From: Minisyncoccota bacterium
GTDB taxonomy: Bacteria; Patescibacteriota; Minisyncoccia; Phycocordibacterales; SBAW01
Reading direction: 5' to 3'
DNA length: 64,000 nt
NCBI GenBank assembly: GCA_035546615.1
Contig: DASZWM010000002.1
Coordinates: 32,001 to 96,000, forward strand
The notes below the pieces were generated by a model that was given only the letters and a program-made list of their open reading frames with translations, did not search any database and had not been told where the DNA came from. The translations under genes were made by a program, and so were the position numbers. Below, in pieces: positions 2,000-61,787 of the stretch (its first letter is position 1; every line of letters starts with the position of its first letter).

Positions 2000-3301
2000 A
2001 TGTCCACGTTCCAAATCGTCGTCCTCGGCATCTTTTCTTCGCTTATCCTTATAGGCGTCGGCGTGTTCGCCGCCTTTGGCGGCGTGCTGGGCGGCGCGGC
2101 CATCGGCCCGGTTACTATTTGGGGCACGCTTGATAGGAACACGATGGACGGTCTTATAGAGGCCCTGCGCGCGGAGGACAAGGGCTTTGAAACCGTTACC
2201 TATGTGCAGAAAAGCGAAGCCGCGTACGAGGGCGACCTGGTAAACGCCATGGCATCCGGCTCCGGCCCCGATCTGTTCCTCCTTTCGGGCGACGAGGTGC
2301 TCCCGTTTTCCGACAAGATACTCACCATTCCGTACGGCTCCATTTCGCAGGGAAGCTACTTAGCTTCGTACGTGGACGAGGCGCAGCTATTTTTGACGCC
2401 GCAGGGCGTGCAGGCGCTGCCCTTCACGCTCGACCCCCTCGTGATGTACTGGAATCGCGACCTTTTCGCCTCCGCCGGCATCGCGTCGCCGCCGAGCGTC
2501 TGGAGCGAGTTTTTGACGCTGGCGCCCAAGATAACCTCGCTCGATACCCGGTCCACCGTGCAGAAAAGCGCGGTGGCACTCGGCGAATGGCGCAACATTC
2601 CGCACGCCAAGGATATTCTTGCCGCCCTGTTCATGCAGGTGGGGGACACTATCGTCGCCCGCGACGGTGCCGGAGCGCCTACGGTTACGTTCGGCTCGGA
2701 GCCCGAAGGCTCGGCCGGCAATCCGGCGGAGTCGGCCCTGCGCTTCTATACCGAGTTCGCAAATCCTTCAAAGACCAGCTACTCGTGGAACCGGGCGCTG
2801 CCTCCGGCGGCTGACGCGTTCGTGTCGGGCGACGTGGGCGTCTACTTTGGCTTCGCAAGCGAGTATACGGAAATTAGCCAGCGCAACCCTAACTTGCGGT
2901 TCGGCGTCGCGCTTCTGCCGCAGATAGACCAGGGCGGAAGCCGGGTCACCTACGGCGACATCACCGGCATCGCTATAGCGCGCACGGCAGCGAACGTTAA
3001 AGGCGCGCTTACGGTAGCGCAGATACTCTCGGGCAAAACATCGGTCGGCATTATCTCCGGAGCGCTCTCCTTGCCGCCCGTTCGGCGCGATGTCGCGGTG
3101 GATACCGCATCCAGCGCCACAGCGGGCGTCTTCGTGCAGTCGGGGCTTATCGCGCGCGGCTGGCTTGATCCGTCCCCGAAAGGAAGCGATACCGTGTTCC
3201 AGACCATGATAGAATCCGTGGTGAGCGGCAAGGAGGCGCCCGCCACTGCGGTAAGCGAAGGCAAGGGGGCGCTCAGCGAGCTGCTGCCGTCGACCAGATA
3301 A
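2000..3301 (+). CDS. extracellular solute-binding protein (ABC transporter family 1-like), membrane anchored
   Basis: N-terminal TM followed by an SBP-like region (LVMYWNRDLFASAGI..PPSVWSEF). Confidence 0.5.
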   Translation: MSTFQIVVLGIFSSLILIGVGVFAAFGGVLGGAAIGPVTIWGTLDRNTMDGLIEALRAEDKGFETVTYVQKSEAAYEGDLVNAMASGSGPDLFLLSGDEVLPFSDKILTIPYGSISQGSYLASYVDEAQLFLTPQGVQALPFTLDPLVMYWNRDLFASAGIASPPSVWSEFLTLAPKITSLDTRSTVQKSAVALGEWRNIPHAKDILAALFMQVGDTIVARDGAGAPTVTFGSEPEGSAGNPAESALRFYTEFANPSKTSYSWNRALPPAADAFVSGDVGVYFGFASEYTEISQRNPNLRFGVALLPQIDQGGSRVTYGDITGIAIARTAANVKGALTVAQILSGKTSVGIISGALSLPPVRRDVAVDTASSATAGVFVQSGLIARGWLDPSPKGSDTVFQTMIESVVSGKEAPATAVSEGKGALSELLPSTR

Positions 3302-3304
3302 GCG

Positions 3305-3787
3305 ATGAAACTATTTTTCTTCAAGCATAAGGAAGTCATGCGCGTGCTATTTACGGTGACAATATTCTTATTGCCAATCATAGCTCTTGGGGCAACTTCT
3401 TCGGGCGGCAATACGTTGCCCACGTCCTCCGGCGGCAACACCTTGCCGACCTCCTATGGCGGCAATACGGCAAATTCAGGCGACAACTGCGACCCCAGGG
3501 TCCAGGTATGCAACCCGCTCCAGTTCCATAGCATCTGCGGCCTGGTGACCGGCGTGTTGGATGCCATCATGGTAATCGGCATTCCGATAGCTATAATGTT
3601 CGTCGTATGGGCCGGATTTAAATTCGTCGTAGCGCAAGGCAATCCGGAATCCATTTCACAGGCTAAAACCAATTTTCTGCATGTCATCATCGGCATCGCC
3701 ATATTCGTGGGTGCTTCGCTAATCGCGCATGTCATCATGCAAACGATCGAAAATCTCGGAGTGACCGGCATTAGTTCCTGCCAATAA
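3305..3787 (+). CDS. TrbC/VirB2-like pilin family small membrane protein
   Basis: Signal peptide, SSGGNTLPTS repeats, Cys pair, then two hydrophobic helices (IPIAIMFVVWAG ... IGIAIFVGASLIAHV), the VirB2-type topology. Confidence 0.5.
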   Translation: MKLFFFKHKEVMRVLFTVTIFLLPIIALGATSSGGNTLPTSSGGNTLPTSYGGNTANSGDNCDPRVQVCNPLQFHSICGLVTGVLDAIMVIGIPIAIMFVVWAGFKFVVAQGNPESISQAKTNFLHVIIGIAIFVGASLIAHVIMQTIENLGVTGISSCQ

Positions 3788-3788
3788 T

Positions 3789-4145
3789 ATGCCGCTCACC
3801 GCCGCCGCTACGCTTTCAAACCAATCGTCGCTCAAAGATGTCGCATTATTCGCGGTGGAGATTCTCAACTCCCTGGTTCCGGTCCTCCTGGTGCTTATCC
3901 TCGTGCTCTTTCTCTGGATAGGGGTGCAGTATATCTACCGGGCCGACGGTGAGAACAAGGCCTCTACCCGGGAAGCGATTCTCTGGGGGCTTATAGCGCT
4001 ATTTGTCGCCTTCTCAGTGTGGGGAATAGTGCGCCTGGCTTGCAGCACGCTTCTTGGCACCAGCGAATGCAGTTCAGGCAGCAGCGGTGGAGGGGGAAAT
4101 GCAAACCAGGCGCCGCTCAATATCATTCCCGAATCGGCCCGCTAA
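3789..4145 (+). CDS. pilin-like small membrane protein (paralog)
   Basis: Two TM helices with the REAILWGLIALFVAFSVWGIVRL motif shared with the neighbours. Confidence 0.4.
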   Translation: MPLTAAATLSNQSSLKDVALFAVEILNSLVPVLLVLILVLFLWIGVQYIYRADGENKASTREAILWGLIALFVAFSVWGIVRLACSTLLGTSECSSGSSGGGGNANQAPLNIIPESAR

Positions 4146-4224
4146 GCTAAAAACTATCCACACGGCCGCCTTGTGCCGGAGCGCCCCGCGGCATACAGTT
4201 AAGCCATACCCATTTAATACTCGT

Positions 4225-4572
4225 ATGAAAAAAACAGCACTTATCTCATCTCTTTTGTTCGCCTTGCCGGCGTTCGCCTTCGCTCAGGTGCAGGGTAACA
4301 ACCTCCAGGGGCTTATCGCATGGCTGGGCGATACGCTCAATATGCTCATTCCGGTCCTTATCGCGCTCGCGCTCGTGGCATTCTTCTGGGGATTGGTCCG
4401 CTACGTTTGGGGTGCAGGCGGCGAAGGCGCAGCTGACGGCAAGAGCATCATGATAGCAGGGCTCCTTGGCCTTTTCATCATGGTGTCCGTCTGGGGCATC
4501 ATCAAGCTCGCGCAGAATACCCTTGGCGTTAACAACAGCAACGCTCCTCAATATCCGCAGGTTCCGCGCTAA
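4225..4572 (+). CDS. TrbC/VirB2-like pilin family protein (paralog)
   Basis: MKKTALISSLLFALPAFAFA signal peptide, two TM helices, GLLGLFIMVSVWGIIKLAQNTLGV motif. Confidence 0.5.
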   Translation: MKKTALISSLLFALPAFAFAQVQGNNLQGLIAWLGDTLNMLIPVLIALALVAFFWGLVRYVWGAGGEGAADGKSIMIAGLLGLFIMVSVWGIIKLAQNTLGVNNSNAPQYPQVPR

Positions 4573-4578
4573 CCGGGT

Positions 4579-4878
4579 ATGAACAACGCGGCGGCGGTTA
4601 CCGTGTCGGGCCAGTGCATAGACAGCGCGCGGCTCTTTGCGGGCTGCCTGGCTGACCTCATCATCAATCCAATACTGCTGCTCATATTCGTAGCGGGGCT
4701 CGTCGTATTCATTTACGGCATTGTCGAGTTCGTCTGGGGCCTTTCCGCGAACGGCGAGGAAAAGGAGAAAGGGAAGCAGCACATGCTCTACGGCCTTATC
4801 GGCATGTTCATCATGGCGGCGGCCTTCAGCATCATAAAAATAATTGCCAACACGATCGGCGTCTCGGTGCCGCACTAG
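4579..4878 (+). CDS. pilin-like small membrane protein (paralog)
   Basis: MLYGLIGMFIMAAAFSIIKIIANTIGV is paralogous to the C-terminus of 4225..4572. Confidence 0.45.
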   Translation: MNNAAAVTVSGQCIDSARLFAGCLADLIINPILLLIFVAGLVVFIYGIVEFVWGLSANGEEKEKGKQHMLYGLIGMFIMAAAFSIIKIIANTIGVSVPH

Positions 4879-4895
4879 CTTTTAGAAATAGAAAA

Positions 4896-4922
4896 GGCGC
4901 GGGAAAGAAATTTCCCGCGCCC
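4896..4922. terminator. putative bidirectional terminator
   Basis: Hairpin ggcgcgggaaagaaatttcccgcgcc between convergent genes. Confidence 0.4.
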
Positions 4923-4939
4923 TCAGTGTTGTTGACCTC

Positions 4940-5761
4940 CTAGTTGTACCGGGGAGGCGAGAGTGCGACCCCCAGTATGAAGGGAGTGTCGGCGCTCCAT
5001 GCCCACTCGGCGTCGTTTGGGAGACTTCCTCCACACACCTCGTAAGGGGTGGTATCTCCCGTCCATGCGGCACGCTGGACGATAATGCAGTGCCCGTCGT
5101 GCCACAGGTCCGGCGCGCACATGCCGCCGGGATTGAAGTTAGTGGGCGTTTCAGTATCCAGCGCGTAGCTTGTCTTCGAGGAACATGAATCCTGCGGACC
5201 CACGCTTCCGACAGCTACCTGCTCCGGCGCGCCACTGCCGCTCATGAGCGAAGCCAGCATCGGAATTGCGAAGAACCCGAGCAGGATGGTGAGGAAGACA
5301 GCGAATACCCGCCGCCCTCCTTTGCTGGTAAGTACCAGCACCGCCGTAGCCAACATGCCTGCAACGAGCAGACCTGTGAGCAATTGCGTTGTGAAGAACT
5401 TCGCTGCTGCCGTGCCTGTATTTCCTACGCTCGCCCAGATCGAAGCCTGGAATGAAGCAAGGAAGGCAAGCGGAGCGAGCAGCGCGGTGGCAAGCACAAT
5501 CAGAGTGATCGCCACTGCCACCCAAAGCCACCGAGGCAAGGCATACCACCGGGGACCGGTATGGGTCGCGGGTTCTTCGTGCCCGTGGCCACCACCCGCC
5601 GCAGGAGCGGCGGGTGCAGCTGCAGGCGTATGTACTGCCGGGGGAAGAGTCGCTCTCCCGGCAGGTGTTCTTGTTCTGCGCCCCCTGCTGAGCATGGCTG
5701 CGGAAAATATGATCGCAACGATACCAGCAGAGGCGACAGCGATAATCCAACCCTGAAGCAT
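4940..5761 (-). CDS. hypothetical polytopic membrane protein with Cys-containing C-terminal domain
   Basis: Several TM segments and a Pro/Ala-rich linker; start overlaps the upstream gene's stop (ATGA). Confidence 0.45.
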   Translation of the reverse strand: MLQGWIIAVASAGIVAIIFSAAMLSRGRRTRTPAGRATLPPAVHTPAAAPAAPAAGGGHGHEEPATHTGPRWYALPRWLWVAVAITLIVLATALLAPLAFLASFQASIWASVGNTGTAAAKFFTTQLLTGLLVAGMLATAVLVLTSKGGRRVFAVFLTILLGFFAIPMLASLMSGSGAPEQVAVGSVGPQDSCSSKTSYALDTETPTNFNPGGMCAPDLWHDGHCIIVQRAAWTGDTTPYEVCGGSLPNDAEWAWSADTPFILGVALSPPRYN

Positions 5762-7035: not shown

Positions 7036-7195
7036 CTAGGTTACTCCTATTGAATTTTCAAGCATCTATTGCGAATAGCAGCCCAAAGGCAGCTACACGC
7101 TTCACCTACTATTATATCATACTTAGTACCACTTTGTCAAGCTACAAAAGCCTTGGAATATAAGGCCAAATCGAACGTTTTCCTACTGCTTTTTG

Positions 7196-7279
7196 TGCCG
7201 GGGGTGGGAATCGAACCCACACGAACTCGCGTTCTCAGGATTTTAAGTCCTGTATGTCTACCAATTCCATCACCCCGGC
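7196..7279 (-). tRNA. tRNA-Leu(TAA)
   Basis: Reverse complement GCCGGGGTGATGGAATTGGTAGACATACAGGACTTAAAATCCTG...GGGTTCGATTCCCACCCCCGGCA: cloverleaf with long variable arm, anticodon UAA. Confidence 0.85.
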
Positions 7280-7284
7280 GTTTC

Positions 7285-7332
7285 ATATTTTTACCACGAA
7301 TTTATGCTCTGTATATGATACAGTGTCAGCAC
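7285..7332. promoter_or_regulatory. putative divergent promoter region between two tRNA-Leu genes
   Basis: ttacca-17nt-tatgat on the plus strand; tgacac-17nt-ataaat on the minus strand; near-palindrome ctgtatatgatacag. Confidence 0.25.
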
Positions 7333-7414
7333 GCTGGGGTGGCGGAATTGGTATACGCACCTGCCTTAGGAGCAGACGGGGTAACCCATGGAGGTTCAAG
7401 TCCTCTCCCCAGCA
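7333..7414 (+). tRNA. tRNA-Leu(TAG)
   Basis: GCTGGGGTGGCGGAATTGGTATACGCACCTGCCTTAGGAGCAG...GAGGTTCAAGTCCTCTCCCCAGCA; type II variable arm, anticodon UAG. Confidence 0.85.
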
Positions 7415-7534
7415 CATTGTAAGAGATAAGTTTTTGTTGTATTTTGATTCATACGCGCCTATATCTTCCCCAGGTCGATATAGCCGTTCGTTCGGGGCGA
7501 ATGCAAAACAGGATTTTGCGCTCTTCCTCACTTC

Positions 7535-7607
7535 GCGCCTATAGCTCAGCTGGTAGAGCTGCTCCCTCTTAAGGAGAAGGTCCCAGGTTCGAATCCTGGT
7601 GGGCGCA
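7535..7607 (+). tRNA. tRNA-Lys(CTT)
   Basis: GCGCCTATAGCTCAGCTGGTAGAGCTGCTCCCTCTTAAGGAGAAGGTCCCAGGTTCGAATCCTGGTGGGCGCA. Confidence 0.85.
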
Positions 7608-7618
7608 CAGACGACAGT

Positions 7619-7642
7619 AAAATCCCGCTTGAGCGGGATTTT
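7619..7642 (+). terminator. hairpin immediately 3' of tRNA-Lys
   Basis: aaaatcccgcttgagcgggatttt. Confidence 0.4.
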
Positions 7643-7650
7643 CTGCGCTG

Positions 7651-7759
7651 TGCGGGGCGCAGCCATGTCCCGCACTGGCGGGACGGCGAGCCGGGGTCGC
7701 GAAACTATTTCGCGACGGCGAAATAGTATTTGTGACCACAAAGTGCGAGACGCTTTTTT
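7651..7759 (+). repeat. structured repeat family F1, copy 1 (3' of tRNA-Lys)
   Basis: Hairpin gtcccgc-actg-gcgggac, conserved GAGCCGGGGTCGCGAAA, hairpin actatttcgc-GACG-gcgaaatagt, conserved TATTTGTGACC, then gcgagacgc plus T-run. The second copy at 17829..17945 has different stem sequences that still pair. Confidence 0.6.
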
Positions 7760-7765
7760 GAGGCC

Positions 7766-7897
7766 AGGAGAAATCGATCAGGCGTTCAAAAATTGTCGTC
7801 ACAATTTTTGCCGCACGACCCTGCCTCGCTCCCAAGTCTGCTGACTTGGGGCCCGCTCCGGCTTGCGATTCCCGACGAGAAGCACCCCGTGCTTCTC
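7766..7897 (-). repeat. structured repeat family F2, copy A (sense on minus strand, 3' of infB-rbfA)
   Basis: Reading the minus strand: 9-bp hairpin with GGG loop; GGAATCGCAAGCCGGAGCGGGCCCC; 8-bp hairpin; GGGAGCGAGGCAGGGTCGTGCGG; AU-rich hairpin with GACG loop; tail CTGATCGATTTC complementary to the 5' GGAATCG. Confidence 0.65.
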
Positions 7898-8052
7898 TCC
7901 ATGGCCGCTTGCGTCGAAGACTCCTTAGAGGCCACGGCGGGAATCGCACCCGCGTATAAAGGATTTGCAGTCCCTTGCCTTACTACTTGGCTACGTGGCC
8001 ATTGCCTAGCGGCAGGCACGTGCCCGCACGCGTAGGTGTAATTACAATACCG

Positions 8053-15772: not shown

Positions 15773-16873
15773 ATGCGCAATAGGGGTGCCGTACTCATAT
15801 TTGCGGGAGGGCTGCTCTTTACCCTCTTGCCGTTTATCGCCTCGGCCGCCGGGATTGTTCCATGTGGCGATACCACGGGCCTTGCGCCAGGTACTCCTCA
15901 GTATTACGCGGCCGCAACAAGTTGTCAGGCATGCAGCGTAATTCAACTGATTCAGACCCTTATTAACTTCATGATAGGACTCTCCATTCCTATCGCGATG
16001 GCGCTCTTCGCCTGGGCCGGCGTCCTGTATTTTACAGCCGCTACCAAGGAGGAGAATATATCAAAGGCAAAGAGCATTTTCCGCAGCGTATTTGTCGGAT
16101 TCATCATAGTTCTCGGCGCATACCTTATGGTAGAGACGCTCCTGCACGCCATTCTTAATCAGGATTACTTTACCGGCTGGAACAAGATCGAATGCGTTGA
16201 TAATACCAAGCGCCCAACCCAGGGCACGCTCGGTCAACTGATAAATGAAGTAATAGGCCATCCGGAAGATTCTTTAGTTGTTGGGAAGGCTCCTGTCGCG
16301 GTAAGCGATCCGTCTACATGTACCGGCAAACTGAGCTACGACAGCTCTATCAATCAGTATTACTGCTTGAATACAGTCAGCGGCATGGTCAGTCAAACAG
16401 GCTCTGGACAGTGTGCGCCCGGCAGCATACAAGCTGCTGCTGCGGCGGGAGGATATCCCATTACACCAGCACAAGCTCAGACCTTTTCCTGCCTTGCGGC
16501 TCCGGAAAGCGGTTGCCAAGGGAATCCTGGCCAAGCCAGGACGCCGACCGGCGACCCGACAAGCGCTTCCGGCCATTTTCAGATCGTCCTTGGCCTCAAT
16601 GATCAGTGTCATAATCTGAATATTCCTGCATGCACCCAGGCTGCGCAAGCAGCCGGCTATTCGGTAAGCGGGAATCTCAATTGCTCCAGCCACTTCAGGG
16701 GAGGCGTTCCTATAGACGCAGTAGGACAGGCATGCAAGGCGGCGGCAAGCAACTTTACCTGCAATGCTTCGGCTGCGGCTTGTCTGGTAACGCAGAATCC
16801 AAGCTTTAGCGACTGGACGGCGGACCCTCGCAGCAGTTCACAGAAATCATGCGTCAATACGTATAATCATTAG
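15773..16873 (+). CDS. TrbC/VirB2-like pilin domain fused to a large Cys-rich C-terminal extracellular domain
   Basis: N-terminal 130 aa paralogous to 3305..3787 (C..C, IPIAMALFAWAG, ISKAKS, two TM helices), followed by about 230 aa with many Cys/Gly/Ala/Ser. Confidence 0.5.
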   Translation: MRNRGAVLIFAGGLLFTLLPFIASAAGIVPCGDTTGLAPGTPQYYAAATSCQACSVIQLIQTLINFMIGLSIPIAMALFAWAGVLYFTAATKEENISKAKSIFRSVFVGFIIVLGAYLMVETLLHAILNQDYFTGWNKIECVDNTKRPTQGTLGQLINEVIGHPEDSLVVGKAPVAVSDPSTCTGKLSYDSSINQYYCLNTVSGMVSQTGSGQCAPGSIQAAAAAGGYPITPAQAQTFSCLAAPESGCQGNPGQARTPTGDPTSASGHFQIVLGLNDQCHNLNIPACTQAAQAAGYSVSGNLNCSSHFRGGVPIDAVGQACKAAASNFTCNASAAACLVTQNPSFSDWTADPRSSSQKSCVNTYNH

Positions 16874-25506: not shown

Positions 25507-28500
25507 TTACCCTTTTTCCACTTCGCTTGGCAAGCGCCCCGGCCAGCGGTACACGAGCGTCGGAATGAGAATGAGCGTCAGTATCATCGCGAAGGAAAGC
25601 CCGAAAAGAATGGCGAACGCCAGCGGCCCCCACAGGGCGGACGCGAAGGTGAGCGGTATCATGCCGATCACCGTGGTGATGGTCGTGAGGACGATGGGGC
25701 GCAGGCGCGAGGTCGCCGCCTCGACCACGATGTCGGAGAATGTGCGGCCCGCTCCCGCGTGGAGGCGCTGGAGTATGGAGTCCATGAGGATGATGGCGTG
25801 GTTGATAATGACGCCCGCGAGCGCAATGACGCCCAGAAGCGAGGAGAACGAGAGCGTCTGGCCGGTCAGCACCAGGCCGCCGAACACGCCGATGAGAGAA
25901 AGCGGGATAATGGCGAGCAGATACGTGGTGTAGCGGAATGAGTTGAAGGCAAGCACGAGAATGACGAACATAAGCGCCATGCCCGCCAACAGCGCGATAC
26001 CCATCTCGGCGAAGGACTGATTGGTCTCTTCGTTCTCGCCGCCGATAGATACCGTGACGCCCACGGGAAGCTCGACGCTCTTCATCTTCTCGTTGTACGC
26101 GGCAAGCACCGCTCCGGCGGTGTAGCCCGGCAGCGTATTGGCCGACAAGGTTACTATGCGCTCCCGGTCCTCGTGGTTGATTGTCGAGTCGTTGCGCGCC
26201 ACGCTTTCCTCAAGGAGCGAGCCGAGCAGTATCGTAGTCCCGCTCTGGGTGGTGATAGGCACCTGATGAAGCGCGTCTATGGTGGCGTTTGAGGCGTCAT
26301 GCGGGTCAATGTAGGACGGGTTTAGATTGAGAAGCACGTTTATGTCCACGTCGCGCTCGGCGCCCGAAATGGACGTTGCCTTCATGCCCGACACCGCGGT
26401 GCGCAGGGTAGAGGCCACTTGCGCGGCCGTCACGCCCGCCTGCGCGAGCCGCGAGCGGTCGATGCGAAGCTCGAACTGAACGGTCTCGTTCTTGTTTGAA
26501 GCGTCGACGCTGGTGGCGCCGGGTGTCGACTCGAGCACGCCGCGCGCGGCCGCCACCGCCGCATCCAGCGCGTCGCGGTCGGAGCCGAGGAACTTAATAA
26601 GTACGGGCGCGCCCACGGGCGGGCCGCCGGTCGGCTGGTCGGACGTTACCTTGGCGCTCCGGATGCCGGAAAGCTCTTTCCGGACTTGGCTCAGCACTTC
26701 GGTGCTGGTCTTCGAGCGGCCTTTCGGCAAATTGATGGTGAGGCTCGCAAATCGCGGATCGGACTGGGGATTGCCGCTGAATTCGCTGGTGCGGCCGACG
26801 GTCGTCACGAAGGACGCGATGTCGTGGTCGTTGTACAGCACTTCCTCCACCTGGCGCGCGACCAGATCGCTCTGATTGAGCGACGAGCCCGGCGGAAGCT
26901 CAATATCGGTATATAAAAAGTCTATGTCATCCTGCGGGAAAAAGCTCACGGGAAGCAGTCCCGCGATGGGCAGGGCGAGGGCCAGAACGAACGCGAGCGC
27001 CATGCCCCACAGGAAGCGGTTCTGGTTCTTCTTGTGATGCAGGAAGCTTTTCAGCTTCGCGGAGTACCAGGTACGCGCCGCCTCGGCGTACTCTTCCTGC
27101 TTGTCCAAGAGCCAGCCGCGCGCGCCTATCTTCTGCGAGAACATCATGGTGAGCGTCGGCACCAGCCCCAGCGCCACGAAAATGGAGGCGATGAGCACGA
27201 ATATGAGCGTGTACGGGATGCCGGCGATGAATTTGCCCACGATGCCCGAAATAAAGAAGAGCGGGAAGAACACCGCGACGGTCGTCATCGTGCCGCCGAT
27301 GAGCGGCCAAGCGTACTCGCGGAGGGCCTCGAAGGCAGCCACTTTTTTGTCGCCGAACGTGCGTATGCGGGTGTGTATGGCTTCGACGACGACGATGCCG
27401 GAGTCCACGAGGATGCCGATGGCGAGAATGAGCGAGAAGAGGGAAATAAAGTTGAGCGTGTTGCCGGTGTAGAGGAGCCCGACGAACGCGATAAGGAACG
27501 AAAGGGGAATGGAAAGGCCCGCGACTATCGCCTCGCGCCAGCCGATGGTCGCAAAGAGCACGAGCATCACGAGCACGACGGTCTCAAGCCCCGTGCGGGT
27601 AAGCTCGGTCAGGTCCTGCTGCACCTCGTCGCCGGCGTCCAGCGACACCACGACCTGGCTGCCGTCCAGAAGCCCTGCCTTGAGCGTATCAAGCCTTGCC
27701 TTCACCGCGCGGGTCACAGCGGTCACGTCCTGTCCGCGCACTTTGTATACCAAAAGGGTCATGGCCTGCTCGGAGGGCGCGCCCGCAACCGAGATGCGCG
27801 AGTAGGAGGTCGCCTTCTCGACGCCGTCGGACACGTCGGCGATATCGCGCACGTAGATGACCTGCCCGCCGACGTTCAGTATCGCCACCGAGCCGATGTC
27901 CTCGGTCGTATCGAAGCTGCCGTCGAAGGCGATATTGTAGTTGATGTCATTGACCTCGATGGAGCCCACCGGAAGCGACGAGTTCGCAGCGCCTATGGCC
28001 GCCACGACCTGGGGGAGCGAAATGCCGTAGCGCGCGAGGTCCTCCTTGCGCACGACGACGTCTATCTCGCGGTTGCGCACACCGGAGATGTCTACGCGCT
28101 GGACTCCCTTCACGGCCTGGAGCTCGTTCTGTACCTGATCGGCCAGTTCCGCCAGCTGGGCGAAGGGCTCGTTGGCGGAAATGGAGATTATCTGTATAGG
28201 CTGGTCGACGAAGTTCACGTCAGATACCGTCGGGTCCTTCGCTTCCGCCGGGAGGTCCACTTTCGCCTTATCGACCTCGTCCTTGAGCTTCTGGATGGAC
28301 TTGTCGAGGTCGGCCGACGCGAGGAACTGCACGGTCACGACCGAGATGCCGTCGCGCGATGTCGAGGTGAGCGTGTCGAGGTTCTCGATGTTGGCCAGAT
28401 GCTCTTCAAGCTTGTTAGTGACCAGGCGCTCGACGTCCTCGGCCGATGCGCCCGGAAGCACGGTCGATACGATGCCCACCGGGATGGATACTTCCGGCGC

Positions 28501-28611
28501 CGACTCCTTGGTGATGCGTACGGCCGCGAAGACGCCCGATATCGTGACCGCCGCGATGACGAGCAGGGTGAACTGGCGCTTTTCTATGAAGAATTTCCAG
28601 AATGACAGCAT
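25507..28611 (-). CDS. RND family efflux transporter permease (AcrB-like)
   Basis: 1034 aa, 12-TM RND architecture with two large periplasmic loops. Confidence 0.9.
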   Translation of the reverse strand: MLSFWKFFIEKRQFTLLVIAAVTISGVFAAVRITKESAPEVSIPVGIVSTVLPGASAEDVERLVTNKLEEHLANIENLDTLTSTSRDGISVVTVQFLASADLDKSIQKLKDEVDKAKVDLPAEAKDPTVSDVNFVDQPIQIISISANEPFAQLAELADQVQNELQAVKGVQRVDISGVRNREIDVVVRKEDLARYGISLPQVVAAIGAANSSLPVGSIEVNDINYNIAFDGSFDTTEDIGSVAILNVGGQVIYVRDIADVSDGVEKATSYSRISVAGAPSEQAMTLLVYKVRGQDVTAVTRAVKARLDTLKAGLLDGSQVVVSLDAGDEVQQDLTELTRTGLETVVLVMLVLFATIGWREAIVAGLSIPLSFLIAFVGLLYTGNTLNFISLFSLILAIGILVDSGIVVVEAIHTRIRTFGDKKVAAFEALREYAWPLIGGTMTTVAVFFPLFFISGIVGKFIAGIPYTLIFVLIASIFVALGLVPTLTMMFSQKIGARGWLLDKQEEYAEAARTWYSAKLKSFLHHKKNQNRFLWGMALAFVLALALPIAGLLPVSFFPQDDIDFLYTDIELPPGSSLNQSDLVARQVEEVLYNDHDIASFVTTVGRTSEFSGNPQSDPRFASLTINLPKGRSKTSTEVLSQVRKELSGIRSAKVTSDQPTGGPPVGAPVLIKFLGSDRDALDAAVAAARGVLESTPGATSVDASNKNETVQFELRIDRSRLAQAGVTAAQVASTLRTAVSGMKATSISGAERDVDINVLLNLNPSYIDPHDASNATIDALHQVPITTQSGTTILLGSLLEESVARNDSTINHEDRERIVTLSANTLPGYTAGAVLAAYNEKMKSVELPVGVTVSIGGENEETNQSFAEMGIALLAGMALMFVILVLAFNSFRYTTYLLAIIPLSLIGVFGGLVLTGQTLSFSSLLGVIALAGVIINHAIILMDSILQRLHAGAGRTFSDIVVEAATSRLRPIVLTTITTVIGMIPLTFASALWGPLAFAILFGLSFAMILTLILIPTLVYRWPGRLPSEVEKG

Positions 28612-28628
28612 GGGATGATGCGGCGGGA

Positions 28629-30158
28629 TTACTGCGCTACTTCTACCGTTTCCCTCGCGCGCAGGCCCCGGGCGTCCGTGACTATCAGCATGTCGGGAGT
28701 GGCGCCGTCGAGTATGACCACGCGGTCGCCGAGCAGCTCGCCTATCGTTACTGTATGCGCCACGAGCATATTGTTCGCGTCCACCGTAAAGACGCTCATG
28801 CCGCCCTGGCCAATCTTAAGCGCCGCAAGGGGAATGACGAGGCGCGCGGGAGCGGCGGCCGTGGCGGCGTTTTGCGCGCGGGCAAGCTCGACCGTGACCG
28901 ACTGGCCGTTGATGAGAGCGGTCGCGGAGCCGCTGATGCCGACGCGCACCTCTATTTTCTTGGTGACGGGGTCAATGGCGGGCGCGATGCGGGTTATGAC
29001 GCCGTCTGCCGAGCCGCCGAGCTTCGCCTTGCCGCCTACCGCAAGCTGGCGGGCGTCGGATTCGGTGACATAGGCTACCACTTCAAGCGCGCCGTTGTTG
29101 GCTACCGTAAGGACCGCGGAGCCGAGCTGGACGTAGTCGCCGCGCTTCAGCGACAGGGAATTGATAGTGCCGGAAATGGGGGCGCGGATGAGCGTATGCT
29201 CAAGGTTGGCGCGCGCGGAGGCGAGGCCCGCCTGGGCCTGCTTTACCGCCGCGGCGCTGACCGAGGCGTTTGCGCCGGTGCCCGCGATGCTCTGGCGGGC
29301 GCTGCCGAGCGCGGTTATGGAGGCGGTCACGGCCGTGCGCGCCGCGATAGTGGCAGCCTTATAGCCGTCCAGCACCGATGCGGTCACGACCTCGTCGGGC
29401 TCGCCGGCGTTAAGCGCGCGCAGGAGGGCATCGAGGAAGTTGCGCACCTGCTGGAGCTCGGCTTCGGTTTGAGCAAGCTCGCCGCTTTGGTCTGAGGCGG
29501 AAGAGATCTGCGCCGATGCGGCCTTCTGCCTGTCGAGCGCGGCATCGAGCGCGCTGCGCAGGCTTTCGGCCTCGCGTTTGGAGGCGGAATCTTCCGTCTT
29601 TACGCGCAGGTAATACGTGTGCGGCGTGGTATCCGGATTGATGAACATAGGGTCCGCCGCGTTGTGCACCGCGTTGTCTGCCGCCGCGTAGGCGGAGAGG
29701 AGCGCGCTTGCGGCGCTGGTGCCTGAAATGCCGGCGGAGGCCTGCGCCGCCTCGACGCCGGCCTGCGCCTGGAGCACCGCCGCGCGCTCGGACGCGTTCT
29801 CGACTTCCGCTACCACCGCGCCCGCGCCGACGTAGTCGCCGAGCTGGTAGTTGAGCGAGGTAATCTCGCCGGATTTCTCCGCGCGCACGGTAGCCTCGGA
29901 CTTGGAGCTCACGGTGCCCGCTACCGAAAGCCCGGAGGTCTGGTTGGAAAGGTCGGCGATGGAGCGCAGCTCAACGCTGCGGGTATTGTTCGGCGCCGCC
30001 GCTTCGGAAGCGCCGCCTGAGAACGCCGCGTGGAGGACGATAAGCAGGACGACCAGAACGCCCGCCCCCGCGGCGAGTTTTTTCCAGCCCAGACGCTTGG
30101 CTGTACGGGTCAGATACGAAACGAAGTCCTGGAGGCGCGCGAAAATAGATTGCAACAT
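28629..30158 (-). CDS. efflux RND periplasmic adaptor (membrane fusion protein, HlyD family)
   Basis: N-terminal TM, biotinyl/lipoyl-like hairpin (SGEITSLNYQLGDYV), long coiled coils, beta-barrel C-terminus. Confidence 0.8.
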   Translation of the reverse strand: MLQSIFARLQDFVSYLTRTAKRLGWKKLAAGAGVLVVLLIVLHAAFSGGASEAAAPNNTRSVELRSIADLSNQTSGLSVAGTVSSKSEATVRAEKSGEITSLNYQLGDYVGAGAVVAEVENASERAAVLQAQAGVEAAQASAGISGTSAASALLSAYAAADNAVHNAADPMFINPDTTPHTYYLRVKTEDSASKREAESLRSALDAALDRQKAASAQISSASDQSGELAQTEAELQQVRNFLDALLRALNAGEPDEVVTASVLDGYKAATIAARTAVTASITALGSARQSIAGTGANASVSAAAVKQAQAGLASARANLEHTLIRAPISGTINSLSLKRGDYVQLGSAVLTVANNGALEVVAYVTESDARQLAVGGKAKLGGSADGVITRIAPAIDPVTKKIEVRVGISGSATALINGQSVTVELARAQNAATAAAPARLVIPLAALKIGQGGMSVFTVDANNMLVAHTVTIGELLGDRVVILDGATPDMLIVTDARGLRARETVEVAQ

Positions 30159-30542: not shown

Positions 30543-31070
30543 CTAGTAGGCCCCATACTGCGGATTGACCGGCGTTGCGGCCTGCCGTCCATAATGCGCG
30601 TGATAGAGGCAATACTGATTCCTTTTTCCTCCCGTATCCGCGCCGCAGTACAGCGCGGGGCTCGTTTCCGTCTGGTCGCGCACGATAGTGTGACACATCC
30701 CTTCCTCAACCTGCAGGAGCGTCACGTTGATGCTCTTCGGTTGCGGGATTTCCATGACGGCACGGGGCAGCGCAGCCTGCCGCGCGGCTTCCGGATGCAG
30801 CTTGGGCGGCTCGCGCCTTGCTTTTATCCGTAACCGCATGAGCGCGGCATTGTTTGTTGAGCCTGTTCGCGGTTTGCGCGGCCGGGCCTGGCTGGGTGCG
30901 GGCTTCGGCCGTCCGGAAAGGTTGAGACGGTGGATTTTTCCAATGACGGCATTCGCCGTAACTCCGCCCAGCTGGGCGGCTATCTGGCTTTTGGAAAATC
31001 CCTCGCTCCAGAGCTTTTTGAGCAATTCAATGCGCTCGTCCGTCCAGCCATGATTCTTGGTAGAACCCAT
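30543..31070 (-). CDS. GcrA-family cell-cycle regulator-like protein
   Basis: N-terminus WTDERIELLKKLWSEGFSKSQIAAQLGGVTANAVIGKIHRLNLSGR and C-terminal Cys/His block (MCHTIV...YCGADTGGKRNQYCLYHAHY) match the GcrA (PF07750) pattern; 175 aa. Confidence 0.6.
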   Translation of the reverse strand: MGSTKNHGWTDERIELLKKLWSEGFSKSQIAAQLGGVTANAVIGKIHRLNLSGRPKPAPSQARPRKPRTGSTNNAALMRLRIKARREPPKLHPEAARQAALPRAVMEIPQPKSINVTLLQVEEGMCHTIVRDQTETSPALYCGADTGGKRNQYCLYHAHYGRQAATPVNPQYGAY

Positions 31071-31984: not shown

Positions 31985-32009
31985 TGTATTCTATGGATAT
32001 TCTGAACAT

Positions 32010-46760: not shown

Positions 46761-47636
46761 GTGAAGCATCTTCTTTATATAGGAATATGCGCCGCGGCCT
46801 TCTTCGCCTTTTTTCCTCAGGCCTCTTTTGCCGCCGCAGTTACGGCTCCTTCAATACTCGTTTCTTCAAGCACTCCGCTTCAGGGCGAGCCGGTGCTCGT
46901 GACGTTTGAGGGCGTCACCGCCACATCTTCCATACAAAGCATTTCGTATAACGGCGGCAAGCCGGGCACCTTCTTATACGCGGGCAAGGTCCATGCGCTT
47001 TTGGCTGTCGACCTGCATCAGAAGCCGGGGCCGTATGCTGTCTCGGCGCTTCTGGCCACGGGCAAGAAGCTCGAAAAGATTATTACGGTCATAGAGCGGC
47101 CGCAGGTAAAAGCCCCGCTGGGCATTCCGGAAAAGCTCGGCGGAAATACGGCGGCGAGCCAGGCGACGCTGGTATCCACGCTTGCGAGCGAGAATGCGAG
47201 CCTTGCGAACATTTGGACCGGCACGAAGGCGTTCTGGTCGCAGAACTTCCAGTGGCCGCTTAAAAGTATTACCGTGACCGACCCGTACGGCTACTCGCGG
47301 GAAACCGGCGCGTATTCGATCGCCCATAAGGGCACCGACCTTCGCGCGGCGGAAGGCACGCCCGTTGCGGCGATAAACCGCGGGGTAGTGCGCGTTGTGC
47401 ACGAGTATCGCGACTACGGAAAGACGATAGTGGTCGACCACGGGCTCGGGCTGATGTCCTTTTACATGCATCTCTCAAAAATAAATGTCGTCGCGGGCCA
47501 GCTGGTGCTCCCGGGGCAGATAATGGGCTTGAGCGGCCATACCGGCTATGCCGACCAGCCGCACCTTCATCTCACCATCCGAATTAACGGAATCTCCATA
47601 GACCCGGTGCTGTTCTTCAAGCTCTTTAATTTATAG
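46761..47636 (+). CDS. M23 family metallopeptidase
   Basis: HKGTDL...HTGYADQPHLHLTI signature (HxxxD...HxH). Confidence 0.75.
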   Translation: MKHLLYIGICAAAFFAFFPQASFAAAVTAPSILVSSSTPLQGEPVLVTFEGVTATSSIQSISYNGGKPGTFLYAGKVHALLAVDLHQKPGPYAVSALLATGKKLEKIITVIERPQVKAPLGIPEKLGGNTAASQATLVSTLASENASLANIWTGTKAFWSQNFQWPLKSITVTDPYGYSRETGAYSIAHKGTDLRAAEGTPVAAINRGVVRVVHEYRDYGKTIVVDHGLGLMSFYMHLSKINVVAGQLVLPGQIMGLSGHTGYADQPHLHLTIRINGISIDPVLFFKLFNL

Positions 47637-47651
47637 TGGTACGCTAAGGGT

Positions 47652-48350
47652 ATGAAAAAACTAATAGGCCTGCTGTTCGTCGCTGGGGCCGTGGCGGTGA
47701 ATATTCCGTACGCGCTCCTTATCTCCAATTTCAATTATCCGGATATCCTGCGCGAGCCGGCGGGGACGGTGCTGACGCAGTTCGCGGCGGGAGGCGATAC
47801 TCTTATATACACCTGGCTTTTCTTCGCGCTCTCGGGCCTGCCGCTCTTGTTCGCTACGATCCTGCTCGGCCGGCTGTGGAACGACGCGTCGAAGGCGCTG
47901 GTCGGCCTCGCGACGACCTTCGGGGTTATCGCGCTCACAGCCCAGCTTATCGGCCTGCTTAGGTGGGTGTTCGTCGTTCCGATGCTGGCGCGAGAGTACG
48001 CCGCGGCAGGCTCGTCGGACGCGCTCAAAGAGGCTTCGGTCGTCGCGTTCCAGACGGTGAACCAGTTCGGCGGCGTGCTCCTGGGCGAATACGTCGGCCA
48101 GCTCTTCAGCATCATCTCGATGCTCCTGTTCAGCATCGTTATCTTCCGGGAGAGGCTTCTGAGCCGGGCGGTGGCATGGCTCGGATTCGCGGCGTCGGCG
48201 GTGTACTTGCTGGCCCAGGGTGAGCTCTTCCATACGGTCGTTCCGGCGTTCCCGGTACTTGATATAGCCGGCCTTTTGGGCAGCATGCTGTGGATACTCT
48301 GGCTTATCGCGCTCGGCGCTTTCCTCATTCTCCGCAAGGACCGTTCCTAA
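47652..48350 (+). CDS. DUF4386-like polytopic membrane protein
   Basis: Six predicted TM helices; no catalytic motif. Confidence 0.35.
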   Translation: MKKLIGLLFVAGAVAVNIPYALLISNFNYPDILREPAGTVLTQFAAGGDTLIYTWLFFALSGLPLLFATILLGRLWNDASKALVGLATTFGVIALTAQLIGLLRWVFVVPMLAREYAAAGSSDALKEASVVAFQTVNQFGGVLLGEYVGQLFSIISMLLFSIVIFRERLLSRAVAWLGFAASAVYLLAQGELFHTVVPAFPVLDIAGLLGSMLWILWLIALGAFLILRKDRS

Positions 48351-48453
48351 TAAACGGCTTAGATACAGGCTTATTCGGGCACTATTGCCCGTACCCCGCC
48401 TGTGCTTTAATAGATAGGTTAGAGGGGCACCCGATTAGCCGTAATAATTTTCC

Positions 48454-49359
48454 ATGAAAAAATCACTCATTGCAGTTATTGTCATTATCCTCGTCATTAT
48501 TCTCGGCGCCGGGGTCTACTTTTGGATGCAGCAATCCTCCAACACCGCAAACGTAACTCCGCCTGATACGACCGGCACTACGCCGGACACTACGCAAGCG
48601 ACCACGACCGCGGAGGGAGCGTCGGTGGTCATCGGCAAGTCGGCCGGAGGCAACGACATCACCGCGTACAACTACGGCACCGGCGATACCCGCATCCTCT
48701 TCGTCGGGGGCATACACGGCGGCTACGAGTGGAACACCTCGCTCGTCGCGTACCAGCTCATGGATTATCTCGAAGCGCATCCGGACGCGATTGCAAAGAA
48801 CGAAACCGTTACCGTCATCCCCGTGGTCAATCCGGACGGCCTTAAGAAGGTAGTCGGCACCGCAGGGCCGTTTACCGCGGCGGACGTTACCGTCTCCTCG
48901 GCCGCGACCGTGCCGGGCCGCTTTAACGCCAACACCGTGGATCTTAACCGCAACTTCGACTGCGACTGGCAGGCGGAGGGCACGTGGCAGAATACGAAGG
49001 TCAGCGGCGGCACTTCCGCCTTCTCCGAGCCGGAATCGCAGGCCATCAAGGCATACGTCGAGTCGCATGATCCGGCGGCCGTCATAGTCTGGTACTCTTC
49101 GGCGGGCGGCGTATATGCCTCGAGCTGCCACAACGGCGTTTCCGCCGCCACGGCCGCGCTCACAAAGACATTCGCCGACGCCTCCGGCTATCCGGCGCAC
49201 CAGACCTTCGACTTCTACGAGATAACCGGCGACATGGTCAACTGGCTCGCCAAGAACCAGATCCCGGCCATCAGCGTATTGCTCACCAACCACACCGACA
49301 CCGAGTGGACTAAGAACTGGAAGGGCATCGCGGCGGTCCTCAACGCCTACGCCGAGTAA
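48454..49359 (+). CDS. M14 family zinc carboxypeptidase-like protein
   Basis: GGIHGGYEW...VDLNRNFDC...SEPESQA motifs. Confidence 0.6.
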   Translation: MKKSLIAVIVIILVIILGAGVYFWMQQSSNTANVTPPDTTGTTPDTTQATTTAEGASVVIGKSAGGNDITAYNYGTGDTRILFVGGIHGGYEWNTSLVAYQLMDYLEAHPDAIAKNETVTVIPVVNPDGLKKVVGTAGPFTAADVTVSSAATVPGRFNANTVDLNRNFDCDWQAEGTWQNTKVSGGTSAFSEPESQAIKAYVESHDPAAVIVWYSSAGGVYASSCHNGVSAATAALTKTFADASGYPAHQTFDFYEITGDMVNWLAKNQIPAISVLLTNHTDTEWTKNWKGIAAVLNAYAE

Positions 49360-50243
49360 TGCCGCCTCTCGCTAAGCGCATTCTTATCGCGGTAATCGCC
49401 CTCGCCGTCTTGGGCGGGGGGATCGCCGCATGGATGGCGCTAAATAAAAAAGCTCCCGTTCCGGCCGCTCAGGCGCCGGTTGAGAAGCCCGGTCCTGTAG
49501 CCGAAGTCATCGGTTCTTCGGTGGAAGGCCGCAGCATCACTGCCTACACCTACGGCAAGGGCGCGACAAAGCTCCTATTCGTTGGCGGCATGCACGGCGG
49601 CTACGAGTGGAACAGCGTGCTCCTGGCATACCAGTTCATGGATTACCTTGATGCAAATCCCGCGGCCGTTCCCTCAAATCTCTCTATAACGGTCGTTCCA
49701 TCCATCAATCCCGATGCGGTGTACGAAGCGGTAGGCAAGGAAGGCCGATTCACTGCAGCCGACGCGACGACGAGCGCTTCGGCGCTGGCGGCGGCGCGCT
49801 TCAACGCCCACAACGTGGACCTCAACCGCAACTTCGATTGCCATTGGGCACCGACGAGCATGTGGCAGAACAAGACCGTAAGCGCGGGCACCGCGGCATT
49901 CTCCGAGCCGGAAGCGCAGGCGCTCCGCGGCTTCGTCGCCAGGTATCGCCCTGCGGCGGCGGTGTTCTGGCACAGCGCGGCCGGAAGCGTGTACGCTTCC
50001 GAGTGCGATGCGGGCGTCCTGCCGGGCACAATGGATGCGATGAACGCATACGCGAAGGCCGCCGGCTATCCCGCGGTCGCGTCGTTCGACGCGTATCCGA
50101 TAACCGGCGACTCGGAAGGCTGGCTCGCCTCGCAGAACATCCCGGCTATAACAGTGGAGCTCTCAAGCCACACCGCGGTGGAGTGGGACAAGAACCTCGC
50201 GGGCATCAAGGCGCTCATCGCGCTCTATGCGTCCGCGCGGTAG
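49359..50243 (+). CDS. M14 family carboxypeptidase-like protein (tandem paralog)
   Basis: Same motifs, about 50% identical by eye to 48454..49359; start overlaps the upstream stop (taATG). Confidence 0.6.
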   Translation: MPPLAKRILIAVIALAVLGGGIAAWMALNKKAPVPAAQAPVEKPGPVAEVIGSSVEGRSITAYTYGKGATKLLFVGGMHGGYEWNSVLLAYQFMDYLDANPAAVPSNLSITVVPSINPDAVYEAVGKEGRFTAADATTSASALAAARFNAHNVDLNRNFDCHWAPTSMWQNKTVSAGTAAFSEPEAQALRGFVARYRPAAAVFWHSAAGSVYASECDAGVLPGTMDAMNAYAKAAGYPAVASFDAYPITGDSEGWLASQNIPAITVELSSHTAVEWDKNLAGIKALIALYASAR

Positions 50244-50308
50244 AGTACTTTACTTAGTAAAGTATCGGCTGGTATACTGTACGCATATCACTAACTTTCA
50301 GTCATCCT

Positions 50309-50923
50309 ATGCGACTCTATTATTCTCCCGGTTCGTGCGCGCTGTCCCCGCATATCGTCGCGCGCGAAGCGGGGCTCGACGTCGAGATCGAAAAGGTCGT
50401 CTTCTCCGCCGACGGCCGCCGCACGCAGGAGCACGACGAGAACTTCTACGACGTGAATCCGCGCGGCTACGTGCCGGCCCTCAAGCTTGATTCCGGAGAC
50501 ATTCTGACCGAGGGCGTGGCTATCGTCCAATACTTGGCGGACCAGGCGCCCGGCGCCGGCCTAATGCCCAAGCATCAGAGCGGGGACTATTACAAAGCGC
50601 TCAGCTGGCTCACGTTCATCAGCTCGGAAGTGCATAAGGGCTTCAGCCCGTTCTTCCGCTCCAATCTGCCGGAGGAAGAGAAAAAGATAGCGCTGGACCG
50701 GCTGCTCAAGCGCTTTGACTGGATAAACGGCGCGCTTGAGGGAAACGATTATCTGGTGGGCGGAGCGTTCAGCATTGCGGACGCGTATTGCTACACCATC
50801 CTGCGCTGGCACCCGAAGGCCGGCATTGATCTGGGCAAGTATCCGAATATCAAGGAATACTACGAGCGCATCGGCTCGCGCCCTGCGGTCAAGACGGCGC
50901 TTAAGGAGGAAGGACTCGAATAG
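50309..50923 (+). CDS. glutathione S-transferase
   Basis: MRLYYSPGSCALSPHI thioredoxin-like N-domain plus alpha-helical C-domain. Confidence 0.8.
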   Translation: MRLYYSPGSCALSPHIVAREAGLDVEIEKVVFSADGRRTQEHDENFYDVNPRGYVPALKLDSGDILTEGVAIVQYLADQAPGAGLMPKHQSGDYYKALSWLTFISSEVHKGFSPFFRSNLPEEEKKIALDRLLKRFDWINGALEGNDYLVGGAFSIADAYCYTILRWHPKAGIDLGKYPNIKEYYERIGSRPAVKTALKEEGLE

Positions 50924-51193
50924 CCTCTAGGCCCGATTTAAGAGCCTTCATCCTTTTCAGGACGAACTGTGGTAGACTGCTTATCTGGTCGCTTCTTACC
51001 AGCCGTTCGCTAATCGATATTGACTTTATGACAGACGAAACAACGAAGCCCGCAGCACCGGTCGAGATTCCTCCGATGGAACAGCCGGCGACTACGACCC
51101 CTCCTCAGGCGGACACGACGACCGCCTAAGCGAAAAACACCGGCCACGCGCCGGTGTTTTTCGTGCACCCCTTCAGTATTCCTTCATCGATGC

Positions 51194-54680: not shown

Positions 54681-54842
54681 CCCTATACTCCTTTTGCCTC
54701 TTAGGCGCCCCAAGGCGCGAAAACAAAATCCAAATACACTTAAACACATCCTCCTGGATTTTCAAGTGAATGGGGCAGGGCAGATTGACAATATCCGTTC
54801 TATTATATATAATCATAAGCGACTGAATCTCTTTTAGTCGTT

Positions 54843-61713: not shown

Positions 61714-61787
61714 GCTTGGATAGTAATACATAATGCGCGGGGATAACAGGAGTTGCTTGGGCCCCTGCGGGGGAGTACCGTATACGT

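Follow-up and report, generated by a model that had tools for sequence, protein, structure and literature searches.

Among the bacteria that have not been cultured, Patescibacteria account for a large share, and they seem to live at the expense of host cells. A survey of the group lists VirB4, an ATPase of type IV secretion systems (T4SS), in 2,417 of 3,035 genomes and VirB2-like genes, recognized by way of the Pfam families PF04956 and PF18895, in 1,948 assemblies, in only 1,135 of which they lie near virB4; it also describes 441 VirB2 arrays of 2-11 pilin genes, with identities that average 25% and reach 54% at most, and mentions adaptation to different host strains in its discussion of them (PMC12102498). 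In Southlakia epibionticum, the sole species tested, the T4SS and the unusual series of predicted pilins encoded inside its gene cluster are essential (PMC10633639; PMC12857230), and the pilus-like conduit that such pilins might form is put forward as a hypothesis only (PMC12857230). Here we analyze a stretch of 64,000 nucleotides (positions 32,001 to 96,000 of contig DASZWM010000002.1, assembly GCA_035546615.1; referred to as the window and numbered from its first letter), in which a tandem array of four small genes for VirB2-like pilins, W1 to W4, occupies positions 3305-4878. Identical proteins have been deposited under 'MAG TPA: Candidatus Paceibacterota bacterium' (locus tags VHD55_00505 to 00515), placing the array in a Patescibacteria host, and its relatives are found in Adler-, Nomura-, Zambryski-, Kaiser- and Campbellbacteria.

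Arrays of VirB2-like pilins are already known in Patescibacteria, and the present one is another example that leaves the general picture of T4SS in this group unchanged. What it offers the specialist is a pilin set that in Paceibacteria is a fixed four-type module and not a variable repertoire, and that is coupled to the gene of a membrane-anchored solute-binding-type protein. We consider it probable that the four genes supply a fixed heterotypic set of VirB2-like pilins, the assembly of which falls to a T4SS with genes elsewhere in the genome.

Four divergent members of one pilin family

An earlier note on this DNA had reported four consecutive plus-strand genes of 99-160 amino acids (aa) at positions 3305-4878, and both the coordinates and the strand are confirmed. 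W1 (type 1; 3305-3787, 160 aa) carries a signal peptide, a variable Gly/Ser/Thr-rich linker and a two-helix core; W2 (type 2; 3789-4145, 118 aa) consists of a two-helix core with a Gly/Ser-rich C-terminal tail and has no signal peptide; W3 (type 3; 4225-4572, 115 aa) joins a Sec-type signal peptide, ending in AFAFA/QV, to the two-helix core; and W4 (type 4; 4579-4878, 99 aa), the last gene of the array, is again without a signal peptide. All four are transcribed in one direction and are separated by spacers of 1, 79 and 6 nucleotides (nt). The open reading frame (ORF) of W3 opens mechanically at 4054, and MKKTAL at 4225 is the start common to its orthologues. The public gene call for W1 begins at an internal Met (3338, 149 aa); we favor the start at 3305, and hence the 160-aa protein, because the orthologues have N-termini of the form MKxFF and because this start leaves a gap of only 3 nt after the stop codon of the gene before it. 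Folding of the 79-nt gap between W2 and W3 as a possible attenuator gave no evidence for one (z = -0.32).

The best Pfam match of each of the four proteins is PF18895 (T4SS_pilin), in agreement with the VirB2/TrbC-like assignment of the earlier note, with W1 (36.3 bits) and W2 (34.0 bits) above the gathering cut-off of 26.6 bits. The pairs W2-W3 and W3-W4 are each 41% identical and W2-W4 is 29% identical, and BLAST detects nothing between W1 and the other three. When a profile of W1 orthologues is aligned by hhalign with a profile of the W3 family (54 sequences, including W4- and W2-type members), the match covers the whole two-helix core with a probability of 96.8% and an E value of 2.7e-10, and it is this match, together with the 41% identities, that ties W3 and W4, which score below the PF18895 cut-off, to the family. 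The claim of four paralogues holds, W1 appearing as the outlier among them, and the sequence motifs quoted in support of it are present in genes 2-4. Matches to the related families stay below their respective cut-offs. PF04956 (TrbC/VirB2; 27.9 bits) recognizes W1 with 22.8 bits (E = 1.1e-4) and W3 with 11 bits, and gives no match to W2 or W4; the NCBIfam model NF045849 (Mbov_0395 pilin-like; 40 bits) recognizes W2 with 30.8, W1 with 22.8 and W4 with 19.8 bits, and gives no match to W3. PF18895 is found in 56 of 56 W1 homologues and precomputed PF04956 in 22 of the same 56, and NCBI names some of these proteins 'pilin'.

The connection of the W1 family to canonical VirB2 appears weak but consistent, in that alignments with six VirB2/TrbC proteins from annotated virB operons are in register, with hhalign E values of 1.6e-4 to 2.9e-4 and probabilities of 40-50%. 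A bridging case is provided by a 76-aa protein of the Macrococcus plasmid pJEK46-1 that scores above the cut-off of PF04956 (39.2 bits) as well as that of PF18895 (34.8 bits); its gene adjoins a VirD4-like gene, a relaxase gene and the gene of a P-loop ATPase, which has TraG/AAA_10 matches below threshold and which we take to be VirB4-like. 'Pilin' genes of haloarchaeal plasmids adjoin a gene for a CagE/TrbE/VirB-type protein. The pilin family comprises 14,519 cluster representatives at E <= 0.001, and its conserved non-hydrophobic positions include an NPL motif, a Gly/Glu in the loop and a GK motif. Three of the representatives (P0125, P0127 and P0133) are chains of 257-358 aa in which linkers connect two or three complete pilin domains, and they read as natural fusions of array genes. 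Comparison of the family sequence profile with all PDB chains returned chance matches to G-protein-coupled receptors only (E about 7).

Hydropathy and AlphaFold2 (AF2) models concur in giving a core of ~70 aa in which a short polar loop connects two hydrophobic helices, as is characteristic of PF18895. The earlier note had attributed to all four proteins a signal peptide followed by two helices; the two-helix core is indeed shared, and signal peptides are confined, by hydropathy, to W1, W3 and a fifth family member described below, W5. Comparison of orthologues shows this predicted absence of a signal peptide to be a conserved trait of types 2 and 4. Both W2 and W4 begin with a short hydrophilic tail that leads into the two hydrophobic helices (hydropathy segments 17-53 and 62-90 in W2), and their ORFs cannot be extended upstream. 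The AF2 models, with an overall predicted local distance difference test (pLDDT) score of 74-75, show a signal helix and then a hairpin of two long helices, corresponding to residues 3-18, 27-62 and 68-100 in W3 (pLDDT 74) and to residues 9-29, 77-109 and 114-150 in W1, where the linker 30-76 is modeled with low confidence. This linker holds the SSGGNTLPTS repeats recorded in the earlier note, which derive from an in-frame 27-nt tandem repeat on the plus strand (3395-3469) that encodes SSGGNTLPT in about 3 copies; Tandem Repeats Finder gives a period of 27 and 2.3 copies, and a separate repeat search gives three copies of 76-100% identity. Orthologues of W1 have other Gly/Ser/Thr-rich repeats at the same spot, for example GQPxGGAT and SSGxLNG in two of the loci compared below (L003 and L005, respectively).

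A Cys pair had also been pointed out in W1. It is present, as CDPRVQVC, and is specific to this lineage, with Cys at the two columns in 1% and 13% of 82 orthologues. A Cys before helix 1 occurs in 48% and a C-terminal Cys in 62% of these 82 sequences, and it is plausible that the two, both of which would lie on the outer face, staple the ends of the hairpin together. The window encodes a VKOR-family protein (58106-58537, plus strand; 77.7 bits), likely a disulfide-forming enzyme that would fit the Cys-rich exported proteins nearby, and its gene suggests that the organism may form disulfides in exported proteins.

Fixed gene order downstream of a solute-binding-type gene

In order to compare the array across species one genome per GTDB species was scanned, which turned up 481 relatives; the best 80 loci were kept and six from other look-ups were added, for a set of 86. 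The number of same-strand pilin genes is four in 36 loci, five in 22, six in 18 and seven in 7, and the remaining 3 of the 86, with 2-3 genes, lie at contig ends. With each pilin typed according to its best-matching window paralogue the order 1-2-3-4 is obtained in 25 loci, and most of the others are expansions of type 3 in mid-array with type 4 last. Type 1 heads the array, sometimes after a type-5-like copy, type 3, the best conserved of the types, is also the one that undergoes duplication in arrays of 5-7 genes, and type 4 is the terminal gene in nearly all loci. Paralogue order is fixed across about 80 species and, because each type is conserved from species to species with this order kept, types 1-4 are likely to have distinct structural roles.

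The array is the last part of a co-directional block on the plus strand that opens with a gene for a class I S-adenosylmethionine-dependent methyltransferase (1379-1990; Pfam Methyltransf_31/11/25). This gene ends 9 nt before the next one and has an upstream orthologue in 55 of 70 loci. The gene that follows it (2000-3301) encodes a membrane-anchored solute-binding-type protein (SBP; SBP_bac_1 with 73.6 bits, and SBP_bac_8) that has an N-terminal hydrophobic anchor, is devoid of a lipobox Cys and shows a distant relationship to sugar-binding proteins of known structure (PDB 4r9f, E = 5.5e-11). Its stop codon lies 3 nt before the ATG of W1. In each of the 72 loci with at least 1.5 kb of flanking sequence, an SBP gene directly precedes the first pilin gene; the distance from SBP stop to pilin ATG has a median of 3 nt and is no more than 47 nt in 77 of 78 loci, and in 13 loci the two genes share an ATGA overlap. 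From this spacing the SBP gene and the first pilin gene are translationally coupled and, from the gene order, the pilin array is co-transcribed with the SBP gene in an operon-like linkage. The same block of methyltransferase, SBP and four pilin genes recurs in locus L002 (GCA_964587895.1), where the orthologues correspond one to one with identities of 63% (W1), 58% (W2), 75% (W3), 57% (W4) and 73% (SBP).

Pfam finds no ABC-transporter domain among the 54 proteins of the window that were scanned, nor does the annotation of loci L003-L008 place one beside the SBP, so that the SBP has the look of an orphan. GyrA is encoded upstream of the array in 56 of 56 loci, 33 of 47 loci have IF-2 downstream, and the genes directly downstream vary. 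Because the region from gyrA to clpB is collinear in the clade, part of the linkage between SBP and pilins may reflect general synteny. A full-text search combining Patescibacteria, VirB2 and solute-binding protein found no paper that makes this link, and the survey of arrays is silent on it (PMC12102498).

Proposed assembly by a secretion system and rival explanations

The properties described above suggest a picture of how the set might function. The subunits would be helix-loop-helix hairpins that sit in the cytoplasmic membrane and leave both ends outside, a topology that the natural fusions of two or three domains also fit, with W1 and W3 inserting by means of cleavable Sec signal peptides and W2 and W4 by translocation of a short N-terminal tail. 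An ATPase of the VirB4 class and the VirB3/VirB6 proteins that accompany it, their genes lying elsewhere as parts of a Patescibacteria-type, monoderm-derived T4SS, would then extract the subunits from the membrane to form a short pilus or a wall-spanning conduit at the point of host-cell contact. Type 3, conserved and duplicated as it is, may be the bulk subunit, and type 1 may display its variable, repeat-rich N-terminal segment on the surface. To judge from gene order, the anchored binding protein probably acts with this structure as a receptor or capture component. The coupling of the SBP gene to the array lends circumstantial support to the uptake-conduit hypothesis and suggests a partner protein for it.

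A number of results weigh against assembly by a T4SS, most directly those from searches for the motor. As the earlier note had stated for VirB4, VirB6 and VirD4, none of these is in the window: comparison of 54 of its proteins with Pfam gives no VirB4, VirB6, VirD4 or VirB11 domain. A further 4.3 kb upstream of the window contain no T4SS gene. Searches by phmmer of ORFs of at least 300 aa from the window and from about 85 loci, using as queries the Macrococcus VirB4-like ATPase, a Haloarcula CagE/TrbE-like protein, a VirD4-like protein and a transmembrane protein of the pLS20_p028 family, produced no match, and so no VirB4-like gene in the window or within 10 kb of an array, a negative that covers clear homologues only, single-sequence phmmer being less sensitive than CONJScan profiles. 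Clustering of ORFs of at least 450 aa yields IF-2 and ClpB as the only families with a Walker-A motif, plus four isolated ORFs that have the motif. Adjacent virB3 and virB4 genes are likewise absent from the window and from the 10 kb around the array in about 85 loci; all six reference virB2 genes are preceded by a T4SS gene or by one for a lytic transglycosylase (VirB1 in two cases) and are followed by virB3. The array lies neither inside nor beside a T4SS cluster, in contrast to the example that is essential by experiment and, because no VirB4, VirB6 or VirD4 gene occurs in the window or within 10 kb of the array in the related loci, it is never genetically linked to a motor, unlike the essential Saccharibacteria array.

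Further points on the same side come from the proteins themselves. W3 and W4 reach only 18.6 and 23.3 bits against PF18895, the match of the W3 family to canonical VirB2 is not significant (E = 0.067, probability 0.8%), relatives with two or three fused domains are no less compatible with a membrane complex than with a polymerizing filament, and in fold searches the two-helix hairpin is indistinguishable from any other hairpin. In the literature cited here a pilus made by a Patescibacteria T4SS has only been proposed, and none is reported (PMC12857230). When the names of 11 array-bearing relatives are cross-referenced to Table S1 of PMC12102498, VirB4 is found to be listed for 7, a co-occurrence in favor of a T4SS. 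The 4 for which it is not listed, again a point against a T4SS, are scaffold-level drafts of 0.44-0.64 Mb, and their number does not differ from the background of 20% (binomial P of 4 or more = 0.16).

These same observations raise the possibility that W1-W4, together with the anchored binding protein, make up a separate complex at the membrane or surface that is independent of any T4SS. It could be a heteromeric bundle or short fiber for the capture or uptake of host-derived sugars, descended from VirB2-like pilins and freed of the need for VirB4. The SBP gene in front of the array in every one of 72 loci, with a median gap of 3 nt and frequent ATGA overlaps, the orphan look of an SBP that has no neighboring ABC-transporter domains, the absence of VirB4 from the 10 kb around the array, the 4 of 11 array-bearing genomes listed without VirB4 and the existence of fused relatives all speak for such a module. 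The linkage, however, may be explained in part by the collinearity from gyrA to clpB, the VirB4-negative genomes are small drafts that do not exceed the background frequency, and family members elsewhere reside within conjugation or T4SS clusters, and we consider an independent complex unlikely. The suggestion of T4SS-independent surface filaments in the earlier note had been drawn solely from the lack of VirB4 in a 64-kb window of a genome of the ~0.6-Mb class; 7 of 11 array-bearing relatives are VirB4-positive, and the results neither favor the suggestion nor refute it. It is, in our estimate, distinctly improbable that the SBP-pilin operon is an apparatus in its own right in Paceibacteria, in which the binding protein and a heteromeric fiber or conduit of types 1-4 would capture and import host-derived molecules and a T4SS motor would serve for assembly only, or not at all. 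If true, it would give the proposed idea of 'uptake through a T4SS pilus' in episymbiotic ultrasmall bacteria its first genetic handle.

The earlier note had also considered a phase-variable set of pilins, in which the paralogues would be alternative major subunits, expressed singly or recombined so as to alter surface specificity or evade recognition. The low identity of the paralogues (29-41%), the hypervariability of the W1 linker between species and the in-frame 27-nt repeat, which could change in copy number, are what might be expected of such a repertoire; host-strain adaptation is mentioned in the survey (PMC12102498) and an analogy with Bartonella and Anaplasma has been raised in the literature. 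Nevertheless, every type has its own orthologue at the same position elsewhere (one to one, 57-75% identical) and the order is fixed, the longest similarity between paralogues at the DNA level is 47 nt at 70% identity, below what recombination would call for, and the repeat search found no flanking inverted repeats, invertible-promoter signature or silent cassettes. The genes are tightly packed, 1-79 nt apart and in one direction, and the in-frame repeat alters the length of the product rather than switching expression on or off. A variable repertoire is, in light of these results, very improbable, and this part of the note is contradicted. Finally, W1-W4 could be small membrane proteins of unrelated origin, for example holins or subunits of transporters, that match Pfam by virtue of their hydrophobic composition, an alternative that the earlier note had itself named. 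W3 and W4 are below cut-off, all four proteins scatter weak matches to unrelated membrane families and there is no sequence match to a solved structure. Against this, W1-W5 have no match in PHROGs at E <= 0.01 and the neighborhood is one of housekeeping and not phage genes; the link between sub- and supra-threshold members is strong at the profile-profile level, and a family of 14,519 cluster representatives conserves positions such as NPL, the loop Gly/Glu and GK. An unrelated origin is scarcely credible.

Other genes of the window and comparison with known systems

A fixed set of VirB2-like pilins served by a T4SS encoded elsewhere remains the explanation that we prefer, and the window contains one more relative of its subunits. 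In six-frame translation the only other match of the array-core hidden Markov model (HMM) is W5 (15773-16873, plus strand; 366 aa), which has a signal peptide, a pilin core that is 32% identical to that of W1 and a Cys-rich C-terminal extension of ~230 aa. W5 passes PF18895 with 28.4 bits; its extension has no match in Pfam, NCBIfam or PHROGs, and the protein could be a fusion of pilin and adhesin. The gene sits after those of ClpB and tRNA-Tyr, and in two other loci (L040 and L084) a type-5 match of the array HMM occurs just after the ClpB match, in ORFs that run to the locus end. Locus L084 belongs to a complete chromosome, OZ244961.1, that likewise keeps the SBP-pilin operon.

The neighbors of the array are the methyltransferase, the SBP, an unknown membrane protein, an SPFH protein, tRNAs, RbfA and IF-2. 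Between W4 and the convergent gene 4940-5761 (minus strand) there is a GC-rich hairpin (4893-4924) with a stem of 11-14 bp and a loop of 4 nt that is much more stable than shuffled sequence (folding z = -3.6 on the plus and -4.2 on the minus strand). The strong hairpin that the earlier note placed at the end of the array is therefore confirmed in its stability but is oriented mainly for the opposite gene: because its T-run, the U-tract of the transcript, is on the minus-strand side, it is primarily the terminator of 4940-5761, and it is probably a bidirectional stop. The 273-aa membrane protein encoded by 4940-5761 and the product of the SPFH gene were considered as partners of the pilins and set aside, being kept in only 2 and 6 other loci, respectively. 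Genes for tRNAs Leu-TAA, Leu-TAG, Lys-CTT and Cys-GCA lie on alternating strands at 7195-8000, between the SPFH gene and rbfA/infB; in total the window has eight tRNA genes and no rRNA gene.

Elsewhere in the window there are several genes for cell-wall-active enzymes at 46761-52609 (plus strand), namely two of Peptidase_M23 type, one of them with PG_binding_1, and two adjacent M14 carboxypeptidases, as well as a stand-alone Peptidase_C39 at 61261-61803 (minus strand). An AcrB-type resistance-nodulation-division pump (612 bits) and an HlyD-type adaptor are encoded at 25507-30158 (minus strand) and are preceded by an AbrB/MazE-like gene; in a presumed monoderm one would not expect an efflux pair of this tripartite style. 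A clear homologue of the cell-cycle regulator GcrA (30543-31070, minus strand; PF07750, 114 bits) is present in this Paceibacterota genome, and the GcrA family is known mainly from Alphaproteobacteria. The gene at 53856-54749 (minus strand), which adjoins a DEAD-box helicase gene, encodes a 297-aa protein with DnaA_N and Bac_DnaA_C domains and no AAA+ module, so that it resembles a DnaA without its ATPase.

The array is closest to those described in Patescibacteria (the SEML1_0006-0019 region of Southlakia epibionticum ML1; Nanosynbacter lyticus TM7x; PMC12102498). The phylum and the Pfam families are the same, and the locus here likewise is a tandem series of divergent two-helix proteins, 29-41% identical, without a relaxase or coupling-protein gene nearby; its four genes lie 1-79 nt apart, W1 being linked to the others by profile only. 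The array of Saccharibacteria, however, is part of a T4SS cluster and is essential, whereas the 10 kb around the array analyzed here are always free of VirB4-like genes, an SBP_bac_1 gene precedes it wherever the locus is informative, and its order is kept across about 80 species. Precomputed Pfam tables often miss members of these arrays, and two of the four types fall below the PF18895 cut-off; arrays in Paceibacteria may have been, and probably have been, under-counted, as judged from sequence scores at the Pfam cut-off and not at the thresholds of the survey itself.

The likeness to Agrobacterium VirB2 and RP4 TrbC (PF04956) consists in small size, a short loop between two hydrophobic helices and, ahead of helix 1, a motif that contains Cys (NICTFI against SICGLV). 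It is offset by a score below the cut-off (22.8 versus 27.9 bits) and the lack of adjacent virB1, virB3 or virB4 genes and, relative to VirB2/TrbC of the diderm mating-pair-formation type T (MPF-T) systems, by a monoderm host and by two of four proteins that, by hydropathy, are without a signal peptide. The TrbC/VirB2 proteins of monoderm plasmids (Macrococcus pJEK46-1, pLS20-like) and the Mbov_0395 family of Mycoplasma integrative and conjugative elements (ICEs) share with the array a monoderm host, a two-helix core of ~70 aa and membership in PF18895, and the matches to NF045849, though weak, are consistent. Those pilins are encoded by single genes in mobile conjugation modules with VirD4 and a relaxase, in contrast to the four to seven chromosomal copies in a housekeeping neighborhood found here. 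In archaea the Ced/Ted pili employ a VirB2-like protein, CedA1, together with a VirB4-like ATPase in cells without an outer membrane, and import rather than export DNA; the Ced genes cluster with that of the ATPase, unlike those of the array. Several divergent virB2 copies side by side, much as in the array, are a feature of the T4SS of Bartonella and Anaplasma, where they are read as antigenic or host-range variants of animal pathogens; here it is the positional orthology of the four types that argues against variation of that kind and for a set of subunits fixed in identity and order.

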